A DNA stretch of 64,000 bases from Candidatus Microgenomates bacterium (GTDB lineage Bacteria > Patescibacteriota > JACPGU01), in the NCBI GenBank assembly GCA_016188915.1, contig JACPGU010000002.1, forward strand, positions 241,211 through 305,210, read 5' to 3'. This document shows, piece after piece, positions 3,806 to 57,668 of the stretch. The notes below the pieces were generated by a model. The model searched no databases. It saw only the letters and a program-made list of their open reading frames with translations, and had not been told where the DNA came from. Made by a program: the position numbers and the translations under genes. Each line of letters begins with the position of its first letter. The stretch's first letter is position 1.

Positions 3806-4096
3806 GTGGGAAATTTTCAAATGGCACAAACGAACAAATTGTATGTTGGTGGATTGAGCTATAATACCACACAAGATTCATTCAAGGCTGCTTTTGAGCA
3901 AGCTGGATCAGTTGTTGACGCTGCGATTATCATGGACAAAATGACTGGTCGCTCCAAAGGCTTTGGCTTCGTCACCATGGGTAGCAACGAGGAAGCTGAT
4001 AAGGCTATTGAAATGTGGAATGAAAAAGAACTGGATGGCCGTATGATCCGCGTATCAGAGGCTCGTCCGATGGAAGAAAGACCAAAAAGATTCTAA
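3806..4096 (+). CDS. RNA-binding protein with a single RRM domain
   Basis: The protein has an RNP-2 motif (LYVGGL) and an RNP-1 motif (KGFGFVTM). It is a small glycine-free RRM protein of the type common in CPR and cyanobacteria. The start may be the second ATG at 3821. Confidence 0.8.
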   Translation: MGNFQMAQTNKLYVGGLSYNTTQDSFKAAFEQAGSVVDAAIIMDKMTGRSKGFGFVTMGSNEEADKAIEMWNEKELDGRMIRVSEARPMEERPKRF

Positions 4097-4114
4097 TCAA
4101 TCTTTCGGTCGCGA

Positions 4115-4147
4115 GAAACGCCTCAAGCAATTGAGGCGTTTCTTTTT
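4115..4147 (+). terminator. rho-independent terminator
   Basis: The sequence GAAACGCCTCAAgcaaTTGAGGCGTTTC forms a hairpin followed by TTTTT. Confidence 0.75.
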
Positions 4148-26400: not shown

Positions 26401-27748
26401 GGACACCTACTACACCACTTCCTCTGGTCATAATATTTGGTCAGGGGCGGACAGCCAGAGATATTTCCGCTACAAAATGATTTTGGCCACGACCGATGCT
26501 ACGGCCAGTCCTAGTGTAGCCAGTGTTACTATCGCTTATAACCTGCCACCAAACGCCCCTTCTTCTTTAGGGCCGATGGCTTCTATCGACGGAACGGCTT
26601 CTTCTAACACCAGACCTAACTTCTCTTTTACCTTGACCGACAATGATACATCCGACACGGTTGGCTATCGTATTCAAATTAGCCAAGTGAGCGACTTTTC
26701 TTCCAGTATCGTTGACTATACTTCGGCTATGGCCACTCAGGGGACAGCTTCTTTTTCAGTTGGACAGGCTACAGGTAGTGGTAGCTATACGACGGGGTGG
26801 CTTAATCAGACTTTGTCTGAAGGAAATTATTATTGGCGCGTCGCTGCTATTGACGAAAACAATCTTATCGGTAATTGGACGACAGCCAATTCAGGCAATG
26901 TTGCTTTGACAATTTCTTTGCCACCATCCTATACGGCACCTATCGAATCAACCGGCGGAGGTGGCGGGGTAGAACCCAAGGCCGCCACGCCAGAGAAAAA
27001 GGCCACAGAGACCTTTACCGATAATTTTTCCATAAATATTAATGACGATCAGATCAATACAACTAATCTGGAAGTTACTTTGCGTTTTAGTGCTCCTTCT
27101 TCTGCTACGGAAGTGGAGATTTCTAATTATCCTGACTTCAAAGAATCTACTCGCGATCAATTCGCTAGAGAGAAAAAATGGTCTATCTGTGCCGACAAAG
27201 ATACAGGCGCGGTCGGAAAAGCCAACATCAAAACCCACAATTGTTCAGAGGGCGAGTACAGCGTCTATGCTAGATTTTATAATGCCAAAGGAGAAATGTC
27301 GGCAGTTTTCAGAGACACCATCTCTTATCGTCTGAATACGAAAGATATAACTGAGGGGGCAAATCAAGCTATCCCAGAGAAAGGTGGCACGCCACAAAAT
27401 ATTAGTGAGACAATTAGCCCCAACGATAATACTGGTAGTCAAACAGAGATTTTGCCGGCGCTGGTTTTTGTTCCCGACATCATCTTTTTCAACAATATGC
27501 GAGTGGGTTCCAATGGGGTGGAAGTCAAGGCTTTGCAGGAATTTTTGAATAAAAACGGTTTTACGGTAGCTGATAATGGTCCTGGTTCTTCCGGCGGTGA
27601 AACGCAGTATTACGGCGCGTTGACTGCCCGGGCAGTGGCTAGATTTCAAGAAGCCAATGCTGATCAGATTTTGACTCCCTTGGGCTACACCAAGGGTACG
27701 GGTATCTTTGGTCCCGCGACGAGAAATTATATTAATTCACTGAAATGA
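23462..27748 (+). CDS. giant (1428 aa) secreted protein with ~15 delta-60-like repeats, Ig/FN3-like modules and a C-terminal peptidoglycan-binding (PG_binding_1-like) domain
   Basis: Repeated units of ~45-60 aa (IYAKKF.S.G.LDTSFGTSG.LT...) follow a signal anchor. The C-terminus VGSNGVEVKALQEFLNKNGF...YYGALTARAVARFQEAN resembles a PG-binding domain. Confidence 0.8.
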   Translation: MKWIKNKKSYLSPLSFFKEKSNQIYSFLIVVLVLQIAVLAILVPLVRGVNSTTHTSQEDFAAGAISQTAVTNSSGGEISLATVSSSFAQQSFGTNSLGEVGVKVNDLYAAYSPSLVHDSLGNTYVAYFFAGSTWDIVVKKYDSAGAQDLTFGTAGTLTISSSAVAGGIMPNTPSLVVDNTNSNLYVAWDAGAPLASAKTIYAKKFSFAGVIDTSFGTSGLLTAGSNNKSISTDHSFSISIDTNSKLYIATNGTSGTSLTVKRYTTAGALDASYATSGTLTAVSTGNAVGDPYMVVNGGDNLYLLYYENISGPHKIYARKFNSSGVTVTSFGASGILEIASSTQALRDPVVVFGGSENGYVVWTEAANNDIYAKKFSTAGVLDTSFGTSGMATITTASNIQRKPALALDSSENMYIAWEDNRGADYSIYTKKFNSSGTLVSGFGTAGELATFDNSNNQFYPAIMTDATGDIYLAASDDRSTGNTKYDLYIRKFNSSGTRYNDYSPATADDVAISGESSSQEHPASATDSDNNVYFVWRNMATDANGDIYMKKYSAMGFLYDGTSASPEFGTDGQVLISSAGTNAAQRAPRITLDSTDNIYVSWYDNRDGANYDAYVKKFSSSGALDATFGSSGELTVEAGILIGAGESDELPTEMGLGVDSSDNIYVAYYKDLALDGADYAVYIRKYSSAGVIVSAFGSSGTLTVASSSLADTFPTLTISSANNLYVGYVEWELDFSDSKVKIKKYNSSGTIDSAFGTSGTITYDNVGDIDREARLALDSTGAVYLASGNVDDLIAPTAYQIFLTKYDSAGVIVTSFGTGGTITLATSANATIYPSIATDSADNIYATWTQTVADNDIKLRVYNTAGTLNTNVGTNGVLVLDSTTANANQVAITVGAGDAIYFAWSDGAISGAKYDFTGGSTVYYTSGTFESATIDTGSSTQVYGNLSWSVTTPVGTSVLFQVATATTDSGYVYRGPGGFLDTYYTTSSGHNIWSGADSQRYFRYKMILATTDATASPSVASVTIAYNLPPNAPSSLGPMASIDGTASSNTRPNFSFTLTDNDTSDTVGYRIQISQVSDFSSSIVDYTSAMATQGTASFSVGQATGSGSYTTGWLNQTLSEGNYYWRVAAIDENNLIGNWTTANSGNVALTISLPPSYTAPIESTGGGGGVEPKAATPEKKATETFTDNFSININDDQINTTNLEVTLRFSAPSSATEVEISNYPDFKESTRDQFAREKKWSICADKDTGAVGKANIKTHNCSEGEYSVYARFYNAKGEMSAVFRDTISYRLNTKDITEGANQAIPEKGGTPQNISETISPNDNTGSQTEILPALVFVPDIIFFNNMRVGSNGVEVKALQEFLNKNGFTVADNGPGSSGGETQYYGALTARAVARFQEANADQILTPLGYTKGTGIFGPATRNYINSLK

Positions 27749-27789
27749 AATTCGTAGAGGCGTTGCAATGCAACGTCTCTACGAATTTC
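27747..27789. terminator. long near-perfect hairpin (AAATTCGTAGAGgCGTTGCAatGCAACGtCTCTACGAATTT) between the giant gene stop and the tRNA-Pro 3' end
   Basis: The hairpin is ~19 bp. On the minus strand it is followed by a T-rich stretch. Confidence 0.6.
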
Positions 27790-27791
27790 AA

Positions 27792-27864
27792 TCGGGATAG
27801 GCAGACTTGAACTGCCGACCTCCACGTCCCGAACGTGGCGCGCTACCAACTGCGCTATACCCCG
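27792..27864 (-). tRNA. tRNA-Pro with anticodon CGG (73 nt, no encoded CCA)
   Basis: The minus-strand sequence is CGGGGTA-TA-GCGC-AGTTGGTA-GCGC-G-CCACG-TTCGGGA-CGTGG-AGGTC-GGCAG-TTCAAGT-CTGCC-TATCCCG-A. The acceptor has one G-U pair. Confidence 0.85.
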
Positions 27865-27867
27865 ACT

Positions 27868-27960
27868 CAAGCTCTGGCGGGCAGGCGAATCGTGTGCCTT
27901 AGCCAATTAGGCCAGTCGCCGACACAAGCTTTGGCGGGTGGCGCGCTACCAGTGCTACTT
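27868..27960. repeat. tRNA-Pro 5'-fragment duplication plus a 20-nt direct repeat (CAAGCTyTGGCGGGyrGGCG) upstream of tRNA-Pro
   Basis: The copy at 27868-27887 directly abuts the tRNA 5' end. The copy at 27925-27945 is fused to GGCGCGCTACCAGTGCTAC, whose reverse complement GTAGCACTGGTAGCGCGCC resembles the tRNA-Pro D-arm TAGCGCAGTTGGTAGCGCGCC. Confidence 0.5.
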
Positions 27961-40838: not shown

Positions 40839-41100
40839 ATATTTTTGACTCCAAAATAAGCGACTCTTTCAAATCGTGAAGTTTCTGCCAACGGTACCTT
40901 TTGGTTAAAATCCGAACTTTTTTTGACGAAAATCCGAATCCCGAATTTTAAAATCCAATCGCTCGGGCGGGCAAAAAGGAAGGGGGTTGGGGGGAGCGAA
41001 TTTTTGCCCGCCCTCGCTTTCCGATTCCAATTTTTTTCCGCCTCCGCCGAATTTTGTGCCAGTGAAACTGGCGCGCCGTCCAATAGGTTTATTATAGCCG

Positions 41101-41976
41101 CTATTTCGAAACGAATCCAGCAGAGACCACCAAAATCAAACCCAAAATATAAACCGGTAAAAAGATTTCTTGAAAGAATAAAACAATCAAAATAGCCGCA
41201 AGGATAGGAGTTAGGAAAACAAAAGGCGCGATAAATGACGCTTTGGCATAGCTTAATCCTTTCAGCCAAAGAATATAAGAAAATCCGTTTATAAAAATCC
41301 CATTCCCTAAAATTGGAATTAATTCATTTTTTGACGGCATTGCAAAATGAGAAAATAATAACATTGCAATAAAAGAAAATAGCGTCGCCGAAAGAAAAAA
41401 TAATGTGGTCGCAGAAAATGGTTCAAAATTTACTTTTTTACTTAATACTGAAAATAAGCCAAAAACAGAAGCTGCAAATAAAACAATGAAATCGGTGAAT
41501 AAATTACTTAAATTTACCGCCGAAAAATCTCCCTTAGTTAATACAACGAAAACGCCGATAAACCCCAAAATGATGGCGATTATATTTCTTAGAGAAATTT
41601 TTTCCTTCAGAAAGAAGAAAGAAAAAATTACAATAAAAATAGGCCAAGTATATTGGATAATCAAAACTTCTAAACCTTTCGCATTGGCATATCCGAAGTA
41701 AAGAAGTAAATAATATAAAAAAGTTCCTAAAAATCCCAAACCAAGAGCAGTAAAAAAAGATTTTTTGTTGTAATTTTTTAATTCAAAAGCTTTACCTGAA
41801 AATATTGTGCTTAATAGTAAAACTACAAACGAAAGCAAGCTAGACCAAAACAAAAATTGATAATTATCCAAATTTGTCTGACCAAGTCTAGAGACAACTG
41901 GTATAAATGCCCAGAGTATTATGCAGGCAAAAATAAAAAGAAGTGCTTTTGATTTGTTTTCAGAAATTATAGTCAT
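41101..41976 (-). CDS. EamA/DMT superfamily transporter
   Basis: The protein has 10 TM helices and a duplicated EamA domain layout. Confidence 0.8.
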   Translation of the reverse strand: MTIISENKSKALLFIFACIILWAFIPVVSRLGQTNLDNYQFLFWSSLLSFVVLLLSTIFSGKAFELKNYNKKSFFTALGLGFLGTFLYYLLLYFGYANAKGLEVLIIQYTWPIFIVIFSFFFLKEKISLRNIIAIILGFIGVFVVLTKGDFSAVNLSNLFTDFIVLFAASVFGLFSVLSKKVNFEPFSATTLFFLSATLFSFIAMLLFSHFAMPSKNELIPILGNGIFINGFSYILWLKGLSYAKASFIAPFVFLTPILAAILIVLFFQEIFLPVYILGLILVVSAGFVSK

Positions 41977-41978
41977 AA

Positions 41979-42806
41979 CTATTTTTTCCTTACAATAATC
42001 ATCATGTGTCCACTTGTGTCAACAACAAAAGACTCGGTGCAAATTTGCATATGAATTTCAAGCCAATTTTTCCACGCTTCTGGAAATTTCTTCGCAAATT
42101 TGTTCGTTACTTTTTCATCAACATTCAATCCCTCTAGGCCAATCTTGCTGATAACTTCAATATTTTCTTTCAAAAACATTTTCTCTAATTCATCAGAAGT
42201 AAAATAATGGCAATAGCCATTACCCCGCCATTTATAATCCTCTCCATTTTCAACAAGGTTTTGAAAATGTTTTTTGAAACCAACTTCTTGCGGCCAGCCC
42301 GCTGGTGTGGCCAGCATAACTCCATATTTGCTCATTACGGAAGCAAAAATTGGTGCGCCAGCTTTTGCGACTCTTACCAATTCTGAAATGGCTTTCTGTC
42401 GTTTTGCTTTTGGGTGAACATGCGAAAGTGGACCACCTAAACACAAAACTGCATCAAAAGAATTGTCAGAAAATTTTGAGAGGTTGGTTATTGATCCTTG
42501 GACAATATTCTTCACTTTATTAGTGACTTTTTCTTTCTTGATTTGTTTTTTCGCAAGTTCCAAATGCTCAGCTACTAAGTCAAACAAAATAACATCGTAG
42601 CCCAATTTTGCGAGCTCAATAGTATATCTTCCTGGGCCACCTCCGGCATCTAAAACTAAACCATTTTTAGGAAGATATTTTTTAAGAAAAGAAAAAGTCG
42701 TTAAAAATTCTAATTCATGAAATGAGTCTTTAATTAATCTTTTCCATTCACCATTTACACTGGCGGAATAAACTTTTTTTGTTAGTTTTGTTTCTTTGCT
42801 GTCCAT
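41979..42806 (-). CDS. class I SAM-dependent methyltransferase
   Basis: Motif I (VLDAGGGPGRY) and motif II (DVILFDL) are present. Confidence 0.8.
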   Translation of the reverse strand: MDSKETKLTKKVYSASVNGEWKRLIKDSFHELEFLTTFSFLKKYLPKNGLVLDAGGGPGRYTIELAKLGYDVILFDLVAEHLELAKKQIKKEKVTNKVKNIVQGSITNLSKFSDNSFDAVLCLGGPLSHVHPKAKRQKAISELVRVAKAGAPIFASVMSKYGVMLATPAGWPQEVGFKKHFQNLVENGEDYKWRGNGYCHYFTSDELEKMFLKENIEVISKIGLEGLNVDEKVTNKFAKKFPEAWKNWLEIHMQICTESFVVDTSGHMMIIVRKK

Positions 42807-42808
42807 GG

Positions 42809-43024
42809 TTATTTAATTAAATCATCAACCGAAACATCTAGCGCTTTGGCGATTTTTCGCAAGGTTTCAATTGTTGGATTAGTAATTCCGCCGGTTTCAA
42901 GTTTAATGATTGAATTATAAGAAACATCCGCCGCTTTTGAGAGGCGATCTTGCGACAAGCCCTTGGCTTGCCTTGACCTCTTTATGTTCTTGATGTTCTT
43001 GCTTATTTTATTATCTTGCGTCAA
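42809..43024 (-). CDS. XRE-family helix-turn-helix transcriptional regulator
   Basis: The Cro/C1-type HTH region is QAKGLSQDRLSKAADVSYNSIIKLETG. Confidence 0.8.
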   Translation of the reverse strand: MTQDNKISKNIKNIKRSRQAKGLSQDRLSKAADVSYNSIIKLETGGITNPTIETLRKIAKALDVSVDDLIK

Positions 43025-43052
43025 TACTACTATTATCTAAACCCTGAAACCA

Positions 43053-43116
43053 CCGTTTGTAGAAATATTTTGGTATAAATACCAAAATATTTCTACAAAC
43101 GGAGAAGGAGGGATTC
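43053..43116. repeat. perfect 24-bp-arm palindrome fused to an 18-nt duplicate of the tRNA-Ser(GCT) 3' end (att-like scar)
   Basis: The palindrome is CCGTTTGTAGAAATATTTTGGTATaaATACCAAAATATTTCTACAAACGG. The segment ACGGAGAAGGAGGGATTC at 43099-43116 is identical to 43299-43316, which spans the tRNA T-loop to its 3' end. The two copies are exactly 200 bp apart. Confidence 0.6.
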
Positions 43117-43260
43117 CTCTTCGCTCCGACCCGCCTAGACTCGGCGAGGCTGGCTCGAATTCGGGGCGCTACACACAATGAAAAGTTGCGCTCGCTCGCT
43201 TTCCACCTGCCTGCCGGCAGGCAGGCTCGCGCCCTTCGAATCCCCGCCATATCTTGATTG

Positions 43261-43296
43261 ATAACCAAAGAATATCAATTGATATTCTTTGGTTAT
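43261..43296. repeat. perfect 18-bp-arm palindrome immediately 3' of tRNA-Ser(GCT)
   Basis: The palindrome is ATAACCAAAGAATATCAATTGATATTCTTTGGTTAT. Confidence 0.7.
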
Positions 43297-43299
43297 CAA

Positions 43300-43390
43300 C
43301 GGAGAAGGAGGGATTCGAACCCTCGATACGGGTTTTCACCCGTATAACGGTTTAGCAAACCGCCGCCTTCAGCCACTCGGCCACCTCTCC
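43300..43390 (-). tRNA. tRNA-Ser with anticodon GCT (type II, 91 nt)
   Basis: The minus-strand sequence is GGAGAGG-TG-GCC-GAGTGGCTGAA-GGC-G-GCGGT-TTGCTAA-ACCGT-(long variable arm)-GAGGG-TTCGAAT-CCCTC-CTTCTCC-G. Confidence 0.85.
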
Positions 43391-43552
43391 ATATTTTTGA
43401 TTTAAACATCACGATAGACTGAAACATCTTTTCTGCTCTAGGCGGCATATCAACCTTTGGTTGATTACGCCTTTCCCGCCACAACTATCATAAAATATTA
43501 TAGTAGGCGGGACCCCTGCCTCGCCGGCAGGCAGGCCGCCTTTGGCGGTGGC

Positions 43553-43573
43553 AGCCACTCGGCCACCTCTCCT
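43553..43573. repeat. 21-nt duplicate of the tRNA-Ser(GCT) 5' end, ~165 bp upstream of the gene
   Basis: The plus-strand CAGCCACTCGGCCACCTCTCC is the reverse complement of GGAGAGGTGGCCGAGTGGCTG, i.e. tRNA positions 1-21. It is adjacent to the GC palindrome CCTGCCTCGCCGGCAGGCAGG at 43516-43536, which pairs with CCTGCCTGCCGGCAGGCAGG at 43207-43226. Confidence 0.6.
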
Positions 43574-43676
43574 GGTCTAATTTTGCTCCAAATCTTTGAT
43601 TTTCTTGTCCATCTTAGCACAATTAAGAAATTGAGTTAATATGGAGATTCCGATATAATCATGTGGTAAATCAAAT

Positions 43677-43763
43677 GGAGAGCTGCCAGAGTGGTCGAAT
43701 GGGCCGCACTCGAAATGCGGTAAGGGCGTAAGCCTTTCAGAGGTTCGAATCCTCTGCTCTCCG
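43677..43763 (+). tRNA. tRNA-Ser with anticodon CGA (type II, 87 nt)
   Basis: The sequence is GGAGAGC-TG-GCC-AGAGTGGTCGAATG-GGC-CGCAC-TCGAAAT-GTGCG.. The anticodon stem CCGCA/TGCGG encloses loop CTCGAAA. The T-arm is AGAGG-TTCGAAT-CCTCT, the acceptor 3' strand is GCTCTCC and the discriminator is G. Confidence 0.85.
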
Positions 43764-43836
43764 TTTGCCCTAAACAATAGAGCGGCAAACCTAAAAGACC
43801 TATACTTTCATAGCTTCAAACTTATTATCATAAGGA

Positions 43837-44697
43837 TTATTTAAGGTTACTTAAATATTTCTTCAATTCATCTTTGGTCTCAGGATGTTTTAGCCCTAGC
43901 TCTATATTGGCTTTGAGCCAGCCGATTTTGGAGCCGGTATCATAATATTTACCTTCTATCTGACAAGCATAGACGGGACGTTTTTTGACCAAATTATTGA
44001 TGGCATCGGTCAGCCATTTTTCTCCACCTTTTCCAGGCTTTAGATTCTCTATTTCATCAAAAATGTCAGGAGTCAAAATATAGCCGGAAGGAGCGGCCAA
44101 AAGAGAGGGAGTTTTCTCTGGGCCCGGTTTTTCCACTACGGATTTTACTTGATAAATATTGCCGGTTATTTTGTCGGCCTCCAACATACCGTATTTTTCG
44201 GTATCAGCTTTTTCTACCGTATAGCCAGTTAGGACAGGATTTTGATATTGATTGAAAACTTCAATCAATTGTTTCAAGCGGGGCTTTTCGCCGACAAAAA
44301 GATCGTCACCAAAAGCGACGGCAAAAGGTTCATCGCCGATAATGCTTTTGGCGCACAAAACAGCGGCGCCATTGCCTGGAGAACCTTTTTGGCGGACATA
44401 GACAAAATTGGCCATTTGAGCTATTTTTCTTACTTCGGCCAACATCTCTTTTTGTCCCTTTGTCTCCAGCCATTGCTCTACGTCTTTAGAATAATCAAAA
44501 TGATCCTCAACGGATCTTTTCATGGAGCTAGTCACCAAGATAATATCGGTAATACCAGAGGCTACTGCTTCTTCTACGATGTATTGCAAGATAGGCTTGT
44601 CTACTATTGGCAACATTTCTTTGGGCTGAGCCTTGGTAGCTGGCAAAAATCTTGTACCAAAACCGGCTACCGGTATTACGCATTTTCTTATCGGCAT
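43837..44697 (-). CDS. galU: UTP--glucose-1-phosphate uridylyltransferase
   Basis: The N-terminus MPIRKCVIPVAGFGTRFLPATKAQPKEMLPIVDKPILQYIVEEA is the canonical GalU sequence. The start is taken at MPIRK, because the longer ORF-track start lies inside an inverted repeat. Confidence 0.85.
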   Translation of the reverse strand: MPIRKCVIPVAGFGTRFLPATKAQPKEMLPIVDKPILQYIVEEAVASGITDIILVTSSMKRSVEDHFDYSKDVEQWLETKGQKEMLAEVRKIAQMANFVYVRQKGSPGNGAAVLCAKSIIGDEPFAVAFGDDLFVGEKPRLKQLIEVFNQYQNPVLTGYTVEKADTEKYGMLEADKITGNIYQVKSVVEKPGPEKTPSLLAAPSGYILTPDIFDEIENLKPGKGGEKWLTDAINNLVKKRPVYACQIEGKYYDTGSKIGWLKANIELGLKHPETKDELKKYLSNLK

Positions 44698-44732
44698 ATT
44701 TTTTGTTGCATTAATTGGACTTAATTTCATCT

Positions 44733-44983
44733 GCATGGTGGAGGGGGAGACCCGCCTGCTGGCGAGGCAGGGATTCGCCCAGTTATTCGACTGGGCACCA
44801 GATCGAATAATCTGGCAAACTCATTTACTGCCTTAAACGGAGAGAGTGGGATTCGAACCCACGAACCACTTGCGTGGTTAACAGTTTTCAAGACTGTCGC
44901 CTTCAACCACTCGGCCATCTCTCCGCTTCTCTGCGGTGGCAAGACAATTGCACTAAACTACTATGCGACCCCTCCACCATGCA
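44733..44983. repeat. 15-bp inverted repeat (TGCATGGTGGAGGGG / CCCCTCCACCATGCA) bracketing tRNA-Ser(TGA) and ~160 bp of GC-rich hairpins
   Basis: The arms are at 44733-44747 and 44969-44983. Internal hairpins include CCCAGTtattcgaCTGGG and CCAGATcgaataATCTGG. Confidence 0.55.
44838..44924 (-). tRNA. tRNA-Ser with anticodon TGA (type II, 87 nt)
   Basis: The minus-strand sequence is GGAGAGA-TG-GCC-GAGTGGTTGAA-GGC-G-ACAGT-CTTGAAA-ACTGT-(variable arm)-GTGGG-TTCGAAT-CCCAC-TCTCTCC-G. Confidence 0.85.
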
Positions 44984-45153
44984 GATTTTCCCTTAAGCTA
45001 TGCTATCATACTATAAAATTTGACTGATTTCAACTGAGTAGATATACAGATATTTTTACTATATTTAGCCAAAATGTTAAATAAAGAATTTGACCAGAAG
45101 AGCTTTTTGTGCTAAATTTAAAAAATCATAACAACATTTAATATATTATTTCT

Positions 45154-46968
45154 ATGAAGTTCATTTTTGATTTTTTGAAAAATAATTGGATTATCCTTTT
45201 ACTGGTTGTGATTGTCGCGACTAGTTTTGGGTATTCTGATTACAGCAAACGCACTATCCCCAAAGAAGAAATAGGCATTTCCGAAATAGCCGAGCAGGTA
45301 GAAAAAGGAATGGTGGAAAAAATAGAAATCACCGGCAATCAATTAAAAATCTTTTTTAAAGAAAAAGATGAGAAGGGCCAGAGCAAAACAGAGACTACCT
45401 ACAAAGAAGACGGCGTTTCTCTGACTCAATATGGTATCACTCCTGAAAAAGTAAAAATTGATATTAAAAATGCCGAAGCCGGCTCTATTTGGTGGGGAAT
45501 TTTTTCCACCTTTGTTCCCTTTCTTTTGCTGGCCGGATTTTTATGGTTTATTTTTCGTCAAGCGCAGGGTGCCAACTCGCAAGCTATGTCTTTTGGTAAA
45601 TCAAAAGCCAGGCTCAATATTCAAAATGTAAAAACTACCTTTGCTGATGTGGCGGGCAGTGAAGAGTCTAAAAAAGATTTGATTGAAGTGGTAGATTTTT
45701 TGAAAAATCCAAAAAAATATCGCGATTTGGGAGCGCAGATTCCGAGAGGAGTTTTACTCATTGGACCTCCAGGAACAGGAAAAACATTGCTAGCCAAAGC
45801 TGTGGCCGGCGAGGCAGGAGCGCCATTTTTTTCCATTTCCGGCTCGGAATTTGTGGAGATGTTTGTCGGCGTGGGAGCGTCTCGTGTCCGCGATCTTTTT
45901 GCCAAAGCTCGTCGCAACGCACCGTGCATTATTTTTATTGACGAAATAGACGCTGTCGGTCGTCAAAGAGGAGCGGGTCTAGGTGGATCTCATGATGAAA
46001 GAGAGCAGACATTGAACCAAATTTTGGTAGAATTGGATGGTTTTGACACCGAAGAAAATGTCATCGTCATGGCGGCTACCAATAGGCCTGATGTGTTGGA
46101 TCCGGCGCTACTTCGTCCCGGCCGTTTTGATCGCCAAGTTTTGGTTGATCTGCCGGACATTAAAGAGCGCGAAGCTATTCTCGCGGTACACGCCAAAGGA
46201 AAGCCTTTGGCCAAAGATGTTGATCTAAAAAAATTAGCACAAAAAACTTCTGGTTTCTCTGGTGCTGATTTGAAAAATCTTTTGAACGAAGGCGCTATTT
46301 TGGCTGCCAGAGAGAACAAAAAAAATATCGGGCAGGCCGATGTAGCTGAAGCGATAGAAAAAGTAATGATGGGACCGGAAAGAAAAAGCAAGGTAATATC
46401 AGAAAAAGAAAAACAAATTACCGCCTACCATGAGGCGGGACACGCTCTTGTTGCCCATTTCTCTCCTCATGCCGATCCGGTGCATAAAATTTCCATTATC
46501 TCTCGTGGTCGCGCTCTGGGCTATACTTGGAATCCGCCAGAGCAAGATAGGGTTCTGCAATCCAGATCGGAATTTGAGGACGATTTGGCGGTAATGCTGG
46601 GCGGGAGAGAGGCAGAGCTTTTGACTTTTAAAGAGGTTACTACTGGCGCGCATAATGATCTGGCAAGGGTTTCCAAACTAGCACGCGCCATGGTGACCGA
46701 ATACGGTATGAGCGACAAATTAGGGCCTATCTCGCTAAACGGCAAAGATAGTGTAGTTTTTTTGGGTAAGGATTTGGCCGAAGCAAAAAATTATAGTGAA
46801 AAAACCGCGCAAATAATAGACGAAGAAATTTCTCGCATTATTGAAATGGCCGGTAAAGCTGCACGCGATATTTTGATCAAAAATAAGGCCATTTTGAAAA
46901 AGTTAACTGATGAATTGTTAGTCAAAGAAACTTTAGAGCGCGAGGAATTTGAAGCGCTGATGGGATAA
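45154..46968 (+). CDS. ftsH: ATP-dependent zinc metalloprotease FtsH
   Basis: The protein has an N-terminal TM pair, the AAA+ Walker A motif (GPPGTGKT), the SRH region and the zinc-binding HEAGHALVA motif. Confidence 0.95.
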
Positions 46969-56479: not shown

Positions 56480-56702
56480 TTAGCTTAGGCTAAACTCAAA
56501 ATTTTGTTCAAAAATTTTATCTAAAAAATCTCTAATTTTATATCTAAATATTGTTTATCAGAGGTTACTTAACAATGATAGACCCAAAGAGCATAACACG
56601 GATAGAATTTCTTTTGTAGCCCCTTTCTCTTTACTTAAATCGCAGATGTCGTACAATACTCCTATCCATACTTCATGCCTCATAATTCATGCTTCATCAC
56701 CT

Positions 56703-57668
56703 ATGAACCTCAACGATCTCATTCGCCAATTCTTGGAACATCTGGAAGTTGAACGTGGCAAAAGCCTCAAAACGATAGAAAACTATCAGCACTATTTGAA
56801 TCGTTTTTTGATTTTTGCCGAAGGTTTGGGCGTGAAAGAGCCGACACAGATAGATCAAGATGTCATTCGTCAATACCGTCTCTACTTGAACCGTCTGACC
56901 AATCAAAAAGGCGAAATGCTCAGAAAAGTGACGCAAAATTATCATTCCATCGCCTTGCGCGCTTTTTTGAAATATCTGGCCAAAAGAGATATCAAATCTT
57001 TGTCGGCGGAAAAAGTGGAATTAGCCAAACAAGAAGACCGAGAAGTGAGCTTCTTGGATGCCCAAGAATTGGAAAGGCTGATGGCATCTCCCGCGATGTA
57101 TGAAAAAAATGTGACCAAAAGAATGCGTGATGAAGCGATTCTTCATACTTTGTTTTCCACCGGTCTGCGTGTCTCGGAGCTTTGCTCGCTTAATCGTGAG
57201 CAAGTGGATTTAGAGCGAGGCGAATTTTCCGTTCGAGGCAAGGGGAGCAAAATCCGCGTCGTTTTTTTGTCAAATGAGGCCAAAGAATTTTTGCGAAAAT
57301 ATTTGGAGAGAAGAAAAGACAATCATAAGGCTGTTTTTGTTCCGGTCTTGCATAAAGTGCGCGGAGCGGGTAATTCCCCGACGTCCGACGTCGGGGAGAA
57401 AATCGGGCGCGAGATGCGCCTGACTTCTCGTTCGGTGGAGAGACTAATCGCTCATTACGCTAAATTGGCCGGCATTATCAAAAAAGTTTCACCGCATACC
57501 TTAAGGCATTGCTTCGCGACCGATTTACTGATGAACGGCGCCGATATTCGTAGTGTGCAGTCTATGCTCGGCCATTCTTCTATTACCACCACGCAAATTT
57601 ATACTCATGTGACCAATCAACAATTGCGCGATGTCCATCGCGCTTTCCACGGGAAGACAAAAAAATAA
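56703..57668 (+). CDS. xerD: tyrosine site-specific recombinase XerD/XerC-like
   Basis: The N-terminal SAM-like domain (LIRQFLEHLEVERGKSLKTIENY) and the C-terminal catalytic motifs HTLRHCFATDLL...LGHSSITTTQIYTHV are present. The protein carries a ~40-aa insertion. Confidence 0.8.
   Translation: MNLNDLIRQFLEHLEVERGKSLKTIENYQHYLNRFLIFAEGLGVKEPTQIDQDVIRQYRLYLNRLTNQKGEMLRKVTQNYHSIALRAFLKYLAKRDIKSLSAEKVELAKQEDREVSFLDAQELERLMASPAMYEKNVTKRMRDEAILHTLFSTGLRVSELCSLNREQVDLERGEFSVRGKGSKIRVVFLSNEAKEFLRKYLERRKDNHKAVFVPVLHKVRGAGNSPTSDVGEKIGREMRLTSRSVERLIAHYAKLAGIIKKVSPHTLRHCFATDLLMNGADIRSVQSMLGHSSITTTQIYTHVTNQQLRDVHRAFHGKTKK

Follow-up and report, generated by a model that had tools for sequence, protein, structure and literature searches.

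The tRNA-Ser(GCT) gene of a Candidatus Microgenomates bacterium (contig JACPGU010000002.1) raises a simple question: why is it enclosed by exact copies of its own two ends? The gene lies in a stretch of 64,000 nucleotides (nt), referred to here as the window. A fragment of its 5' end is repeated upstream and a fragment of its 3' end downstream, and the spacers between the gene and these copies (Y upstream, X downstream) contain palindromes and hairpins (Table 1). This arrangement, termed the nest, is most plausibly the layered scar of past recombination and not a working machine. In the account placed first here, held with somewhat less than even confidence, small insertions at the D-loop and T-loop left duplications that resemble attachment-site (att) junctions, tiny GC palindromes colonised the site later, and the whole is now immobile.

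Table 1. Features of the tRNA-Ser(GCT) nest, numbered from the first letter of the window.
Feature	Position	Strand	Source
tRNA-Ser(GCT) gene, functional, 91 nt, CCA not encoded	43300-43390	minus	ARAGORN, Rfam
5' copy, exact 21 nt, tRNA positions 1-21 (43370-43390), acceptor 5' strand to D-loop	43552-43572	minus	repeat search
Spacer Y, 161 nt, non-coding, four hairpins, between 5' copy and gene	43391-43551	minus	
9-nt insertion CCACCGCCA, then AAGGCGGC (tRNA positions 22-29), directly after 5' copy	43535-43551	minus	read from sequence
pal', 21-nt GC palindrome variant CCTGCCTCGCCGGCAGGCAGG, in Y	43515-43535		repeat search
3' copy, exact 19 nt, same as 43298-43316	43098-43116	minus	repeat search
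Spacer X, 181 nt, AT palindrome and hairpin-rich core of 62-64% GC, between gene and 3' copy	43117-43297	minus	
pal, 20-nt GC palindrome CCTGCCTGCCGGCAGGCAGG, in X	43206-43225		repeat search
Inverted T-loop/T-stem copy TTCGAATCCC, inside X	43235-43244	plus	repeat search; alignment p about 0.02
Perfect AT-rich palindrome, 42 nt, abutting tRNA 3' end	43258-43299		repeat search
Perfect hairpin, 24-nt arms (43053-43076/43079-43102, 100% complementary), 2-nt loop	43053-43102		repeat search
Weak candidate promoter TTAACT-17-TGnTAAGAT, extended -10, upstream of 5' copy	43611-43639	minus	read by eye; below scan threshold

ARAGORN and Rfam place the limits of the gene at 43299/43300 and 43390/43391. 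The Rfam tRNA match scores 58 bits (E=3.5e-11), and the gene is identical to tRNA-Ser(GCT) of unrelated bacteria at 87 of 91 positions. The 5' copy is separated from it by 161 nt on the upstream side and the 3' copy by 181 nt on the downstream side. The 3' copy is composed of GAAT of the T-loop, the 3' strand of the T-stem, the 3' acceptor strand, the discriminator and a flanking TT, and its boundary falls inside the TTCGAA of the T-loop. Both copies are identical to the gene throughout (21/21 and 19/19), and beyond each junction identity is at background. None of 100 shuffles reached the observed copy counts for either fragment, with 0 expected for the 5' copy. Apart from weak matches in the paralogous tRNA-Ser(TGA), the 64-kb window holds no further copies of either one. 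The tRNA interior has no significant homology to the rest of Y and X (shuffle p=0.34 and 0.86), and the flanks of the outer copies have no significant similarity to those of the gene (shuffle p=0.22 and 0.12). Perfect identity that ends abruptly at each junction is the signature of recombination junctions, not of decayed tandem duplicates. All features listed in the initial annotation of the locus are present, with coordinates shifted by 1-3 nt. Its own reservation, that the duplicated pieces might be parts of paralogous tRNA-Ser genes, can be set aside: the paralogues differ at 2-3 positions and sit elsewhere.

The copies are therefore sharply bounded, junction-type duplications of tRNA ends, as first proposed, and a 3' boundary in the T-loop is classical for the att sites of tyrosine integrases. 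The 19-nt repeat is a direct repeat of the 3' part of the tRNA from the T-loop onwards, which is how such att duplications are recognised. The displaced 3' copy retains a perfect hairpin of its own, and the gene carries a different one. The production of tRNA fragments by integration has been described (bioRxiv 10.1101/2022.07.05.498093). In IMG/VR, 47 of the 120 matches to the 22-mer of the tRNA-Ser 3' end lie outside a complete tRNA, and 8 of the 18 matches to the 5' 21-mer are 5' halves of tRNA-Ser(GCT) broken at the anticodon loop. Two of these halves, inspected on prophage-like contigs (L371, 1365-2624; L376, 8375-9557), directly adjoin tyrosine integrase genes, which points to integrases whose insertion displaces the tRNA's 5' half instead of its 3' half. 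Partial tRNA-Ser ends of both kinds in IMG/VR indicate that elements displacing either end of this tRNA exist. A metagenome scan with a 23-mer of the anticodon arm returned 120 loci, almost all of them from unrelated GC-rich bacteria, and serves here as background only. In the cultured-phage collection, matches to the tRNA region were limited to tRNA genes.

Under the scar reading, the ancestral tRNA-Ser(GCT) gene would have received two separate small insertions, one on the D-loop side and one in the T-loop. Each would have supplied a replacement tRNA end, which kept the essential gene whole, and pushed the original end outwards. The displaced 3' end would have taken its original terminator hairpin with it; the outer hairpin, which begins inside the 3' copy with an overlap of 5 nt, may be this terminator of the ancestral gene end. 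On the 5' side, the original end was probably displaced together with the original promoter. X and Y would later have been colonised by the 20/21-nt CCTGCC..GGCAGG palindrome and by the hairpin CCGCC-AAA-GGCGG (43536-43548), into which the 9-nt insertion and AAGGCGGC fold together. Today, transcription would probably run through Y into the gene, RNase P and 3' processing would trim the transcript, and the AT-rich palindromes would act as terminators. The 42-nt palindrome is probably a terminator or 3'-processing hairpin, and palindromes that abut the tRNA 3' end are also seen at the tRNA-Pro of the window and at the tRNA-Leu of another locus, L002.

In its exact 3'-end direct repeat from the T-loop, in a gene restored by the incoming DNA and in the frequency of partial tRNA-Ser ends in viral contigs, the nest is like the att duplications of prophages, genomic islands and their deleted derivatives, the cis-mobilizable elements (CIMEs). 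It is unlike them in having neither integrase nor cargo, with 161-181 nt between the repeats, and in duplicating both ends of the gene with a 5' boundary in the D-arm instead of the anticodon loop.

Several observations weigh against this account. X and Y contain no integrase, excisionase or cargo gene, nor does one lie beside them. Among the eight open reading frames (ORFs) scanned, no recombinase gene adjoins a repeat, and what lies between the repeats is just 161 and 181 nt of hairpin-rich non-coding DNA, with no credible ORF in X or Y. Large elements would have required two near-complete deletions that left the repeats free of mutation. Similarly short spacers (59-200 nt) recur in several genomes, and genomes share one module, at 74-78% identity, next to different tRNA isoacceptors; independent deletions do not explain this pattern. 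The promoter scan between the 5' copy and the gene found no consensus promoter, and a large element on the 5' side would thus have silenced an essential tRNA. The 5' boundary, at tRNA position 21 or 29, differs from the anticodon-loop break of the integrase-linked halves in IMG/VR. Finally, no close relative with an empty or occupied site was found, the nearest GalU being 69% identical.

Nothing at the nest is demonstrably mobile now. The initial annotation had noted an xerD-like recombinase as the only one in the window. This ORF (56646-57668) is the sole protein with a Phage_integrase domain among the eight scanned, but it lies 13 kb off and nothing ties it to the nest. The scar-like junctions of that first interpretation have held up; its Xer link and its repeated insertion and excision are unsupported.

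The nest is not an isolated case. Self-copies were surveyed at 396 tRNAs with complete 400-nt flanks in the fetched loci (L numbers), counting any direct copy of at least 14 nt nearby. Six of the 396 had one, and five of these six are patescibacterial, which amounts to 5/10 patescibacterial against 1/386 other tRNA loci (Fisher p=2e-8). Six more patescibacterial tRNAs fetched later were without a self-copy and bring the former figure to 5/16, in a sample that is small and not random. The five cases are tRNA-Ser(GCT) and tRNA-Pro(CGG) of the window, the tRNA-Leu of L002, the tRNA-Ser(CGA) of L007 and the tRNA-Arg of L010. Recurrence of the layout in relatives is a new finding, as is the recurrence of pal in viral contigs described below.

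The closest counterpart is tRNA-Arg(CCG) of L010 (500-790), from another patescibacterium, which has a symmetric, two-sided nest with copies at -99 and +99. Behind its 5' copy of 12 nt (20 nt with the upstream flank) come two hairpins, TCCGCCAAAGGCGGA and CCCGCCCCTGGCGGG, and from there the D-loop sequence continues exactly for 7 nt. Its 3' copy of 18 nt is preceded by AAGGTTCGA and a 44-nt hairpin, and is a T-arm with an insertion in its loop. The outer copies of L010 thus carry clean insertions of 30 nt in the D-loop and 44 nt in the T-loop. The start of Y is significantly similar to the upstream module of L010 (p<0.001), pal' aligns with the second hairpin of that module, and the CCGCC-AAA-GGCGG 13-mer that follows the 5' copy in Y also follows the 5' copy in L010. 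In 3.3 Mb, six of the seven matches to the 13-mer CCGCCAAAGGCGG fall in patescibacterial loci.

Downstream of its tRNA-Leu, L002 has the same order as X: a perfect AT hairpin, an inverted T-arm copy (13 nt, exact), a GC-rich core, a 3' copy (16 nt) and a second perfect AT hairpin. In L007, a 3' copy of 19-23 nt lies 59 nt downstream of tRNA-Ser(CGA), and the spacer consists of two 18-nt hairpins. The same trailer module (L007, 4962-5042), two 18-nt hairpins plus a T-loop-like junction, is found at tRNA-Ser(TGA) of the window (44751-44836). In a gap-free alignment of about 81 nt the two are 74-78% identical and show three compensatory pair changes. A third variant of the GC palindrome, beside tRNA-Ser(TGA) at 44751-44771, occupies the position of the L007 3' copy in this alignment. 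No Rfam family corresponds to the module, and its covariance model found no further members. Two other loci, L003 and L324, show the order promoter, 5' fragment, GC-rich spacer and tRNA, with the promoter directly upstream of the fragment. Within 250 nt of a tRNA, patescibacterial loci have about four times the density of GC-rich perfect hairpins that they have elsewhere.

Two other tRNA genes of the window have structures of their own. A run of 14 nt from the D/anticodon-stem region of the tRNA-Pro(CGG) gene (27791-27865, minus strand) is repeated without change 103 nt upstream of the gene (27938-27951), and the gene's surroundings (27746-27951) also contain a duplicated leader motif, CCCGCCARAGCTTGWGTCGG, and a hairpin with 22-nt arms abutting the 3' end. 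The tRNA-Ser(TGA) gene (44838-44924, minus strand) lies between the arms of a perfect inverted repeat of 18 bp: ATCTGCATGGTGGAGGGG occupies 44729-44746 and its complement 44969-44986. TTTC stands on both outer sides of this repeat, a possible 4-bp target duplication. The predicted promoter of the gene (45033-45005) would put the repeat arms in leader and trailer, one in each. The whole (44729-44986) forms a processing stem or else a tRNA-carrying cassette of 258 bp. Searches of viral contigs with the trailer-module patterns and the 18-bp repeat gave no matches or matches at chance level.

The GC palindromes have a wider distribution. The exact 20-mer of pal occurs in 35 IMG/VR stretches, from many samples and from contigs of 38-68% GC, some of which hold several copies (four in L103, three in L089). 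A control palindrome of the same design and composition, CCAGCCAGCCGGCTGGCTGG, had no IMG/VR match. Pal is absent from 2.6 Mb of other loci even with two substitutions allowed. A 30-nt query around it gave no full-length exact match in cultured phages; among the near-matches listed for the plasmid collection, none exceeded 95.8% over 24 nt. No literature on the sequence was found.

In three cases pal lies cleanly inside a tRNA loop. One is a phage tRNA-Met in L107 (2239-2330), whose variable loop has gained just the 20 nt of pal and which ARAGORN still calls as a tRNA. A related contig (L084, 8570-8650) shares this insertion and has in addition lost the T-arm. The D-loop of a tRNA 5' fragment in L114 is likewise interrupted cleanly by the 20 nt. 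This last locus (493-1470 of a contig of 42% GC, beside recR) is composed of the 5' fragment with pal, a GIY-YIG endonuclease ORF and a full tRNA interrupted by an intron. The intron is of group I (Rfam, 86 bits) and contains an ORF that reads as an HNH endonuclease, in keeping with the HNH-bearing group I introns reported from patescibacterial tRNAs (bioRxiv 10.1101/2025.07.03.662931). An adapter or linker artefact is ruled out for pal by its clean insertion within continuous tRNA sequence (L114, L107) and by its presence in two assemblies of the present locus. Given the clean insertions at tRNA copies and the recurrence, small palindromes such as pal behave as separate insertion units that accumulate in non-essential tRNA copies and flanks. 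The viral contig L116 ends in a tandem array (3918-4142) whose 21-nt unit, CCATGCCTACCGGCAGGCAGG, is related to one arm of pal.

Pal is thus a discrete palindromic unit that recurs at many unrelated sites, as in the class of REP-like or GC-cluster-like elements. Small palindromic repeats of this general kind include repetitive extragenic palindromes and bacterial interspersed mosaic elements (REP/BIME), the Rickettsia palindromic elements and the GC clusters of yeast mitochondria. Pal shares with them a short GC-rich palindrome conspicuous in AT-rich DNA, clean insertion in non-essential sequence including RNA genes, and multiple copies in some genomes. It differs in that the unit here is just 13-21 nt, in the exactness of the 20-mer across contigs of such different GC content, and in an association with tRNA loops that is unexplained.

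Recurrence and shared modules are accounted for better by the main rival to the scar reading. In this rival, X and Y would belong to a lineage-specific family of small, non-autonomous, hairpin-rich elements of 60-200 nt that target the D-loop and T-loop DNA of tRNA genes. Insertion would regenerate the interrupted end and leave target-derived repeats of 12-25 nt, and the recombinase would be encoded elsewhere and might work on single strands in folded form, in the manner of integron attC or CTX-phage attP. We regard such a family as possible but doubtful. Its spacers are short and non-coding, as expected, the repeats match the local tRNA in every case, and a GC core is bracketed by an inverted T-arm copy and a direct 3' copy in both the window and L002. 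The homology of Y to the L010 module, the trailer module shared with L007 with its compensatory changes, and the enrichment of self-copies at patescibacterial tRNAs, small and non-random as that sample is, also argue for it. However, X and Y are each without a second copy in the window and in the approximately 3.3 Mb of fetched loci, a 23-mer specific to X had no match in the metagenome collection (Y was not scanned there), and the covariance model of the trailer gained no members. Moreover, the boundaries of the repeats differ from case to case (tRNA positions 12, 21, 24, 31 and 38), no linked recombinase was found, and we know of no mechanism that creates such tRNA-end duplications.

The absence of terminal inverted repeats also counts against this family. 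The ends of X and Y are not complementary, and their palindromes are internal only. The initial annotation had considered an element like a miniature inverted-repeat transposable element (MITE) that uses the tRNA as its target. Short hairpin modules that come with copies of tRNA ends recur at further tRNAs, also in other Patescibacteria, and give this suggestion indirect support; the structure of X and Y does not. They resemble MITEs in being small, non-coding, hairpin-rich and flanked by direct repeats. They differ from them in lacking terminal inverted repeats and dispersed copies, being single-copy in the data searched, which include 64 kb of this genome, and in having 19-21-nt tRNA-derived repeats instead of a short, fixed target duplication. 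The likeness to integron attC and to the CTX-phage attP used by XerCD lies in inverted and direct T-arm copies around a hairpin-rich core and in the Xer-like recombinase of the window. No conserved core motif, cassette array or recombinase link was shown, and the likeness is one of appearance only. The group I introns and homing endonucleases of patescibacterial tRNAs (bioRxiv 10.1101/2025.07.03.662931) likewise illustrate that tRNA genes of this phylum are frequent targets of selfish DNA (cf. L114), but X and Y have neither an intron signature nor an endonuclease gene. Intron_gpI had no match in 42000-45500 at E<=10, with L114 as the positive control at 86 bits.

Three further explanations are less likely. 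In the first, the flanks are selected pre-tRNA leader and trailer sequences, in which the GC hairpins and the pairing of pal' with pal and of the 5' copy with the 3' copy would guide processing, termination or stability. The tRNA-end copies would then be competitors or decoys (decoy attachment sites, for instance). The 561-nt region folds much better than its shuffles (z=-12.6) and includes a long-range pal'-pal helix, but this score is dominated by trivial perfect palindromes, X alone does no better than shuffles (z=-1.5), and each GC palindrome is able to fold on itself. The leader-trailer inverted repeat around tRNA-Ser(TGA) with a promoter upstream of its leader arm, the compensatory changes between genomes in the trailer hairpins and the density of GC-rich perfect hairpins near patescibacterial tRNAs are all consistent with a role in RNA. 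Against these stand the perfection of the repeats, which indicates recent events and not conserved RNA helices, and the window tRNAs Arg and Ser-CGA, which are without such flanks. No Rfam family matched the flanks: over 42000-45500 (E<=10) and over L114, L010, L002 and L007 (E<=0.01), Rfam searches gave only tRNAs, one intron and noise matches to miRNA hairpin families. Selected leader and trailer structure is therefore an unlikely source of the nest.

In the second, the tRNA gene was triplicated in tandem, by slippage at the long palindromes, and the outer copies were then deleted and decayed. The spacings are similar (182 and 200 nt), a promoter-proximal 13-17-mer is weakly repeated, and the outer copies of L010 extend further than those of the nest, with the D-loop resuming for 7 nt after the 30-nt insertion and AAGGTTCGA standing before the T-loop insertion. 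No significant homology of the expected kind is seen, however. On the shuffle tests given above for flanks and interior (p=0.12-0.86) tandem duplication is rejected, and fragments of 100% identity beside unalignable sequence are unlike neutral decay. This origin is improbable.

The third, a chimeric join made through the repeats of the three tRNA-Ser genes, is highly improbable: Logan contigs do break at tRNAs and within the 42-nt palindrome and Y has no independent confirmation, but repeats of 19-21 nt are below the usual assembly k-mers, relatives from other studies have the same layout, and a Logan contig from a different run (L387, SRR12113422) is 100% identical to 41049-43287. That contig takes in the outer hairpin, the 3' copy, pal and all of X except its last 10 nt, so that misassembly is excluded for the nest's 3' half; the 5' side (Y) is known from one assembly. 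Split-tRNA and giant-intron readings were rejected on the structure of the outer fragments, which lack the anticodon arm, and to our knowledge bacteria have no archaeal splicing endonuclease.

The surroundings of the nest are ordinary in gene content. They include an XRE-type helix-turn-helix (HTH) protein, a methyltransferase, an EamA transporter, a DEAD-box helicase and FtsH, and the ORFs adjoining the tRNA-end repeats are the XRE-type HTH protein, the methyltransferase, EamA and GalU. Three tRNA-Ser genes (GCT, CGA and TGA; ARAGORN) are clustered within 1.7 kb around galU. This GalU is 100% identical to an NCBI protein attributed to 'Candidatus Microgenomates bacterium'; its next relatives are 63-69% identical and mostly Magasanikbacteria-like, and synteny is not conserved. 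Relatives in the genome collection (at most 63% identical) are without the tRNA cluster, and no nest is present on the contigs encoding GalU proteins of 64-69% identity. Exact-protein look-ups with the 299-residue GalU ORF, the HTH ORF and a spurious ORF in Y gave no match. Directly beyond the 3' copy lies a 2-kb AT-rich stretch (41100-43050) that encodes EamA, the S-adenosylmethionine-dependent methyltransferase and the XRE-type HTH protein. Most of its 100-nt windows have 23-38% GC, with up to 46% around 42250-42650, compared with 45-59% in the neighbouring genes. It may have been acquired as an islet; its position relative to the 3' copy, however, is the wrong one for an element bounded by that repeat.

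If the nest is a scar only, the finding is a small annotation point, in that partial tRNA copies can mislead tRNA finders and genomic-island predictors. More broadly, and with low confidence, we suggest that patescibacterial tRNAs are recurrently bracketed by copies of their own ends, made or occupied by undescribed tiny hairpin elements that target the D-, T- and variable loops, with pal as one such unit. Patescibacteria have minimal genomes in which tRNA genes are mostly single-copy. If the modules prove regular in this group, they would represent an unrecognised class of very small elements, or a repair process, acting on tRNA genes, and would supply in pal a concrete sequence whose presence in so many unrelated metagenomic viral contigs calls for a mechanism. 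Should X and Y indeed be members of a family of mini-elements, they would be a new type of tRNA-targeting selfish DNA, or decoy attachment sites that protect the single-copy tRNA genes of reduced genomes.

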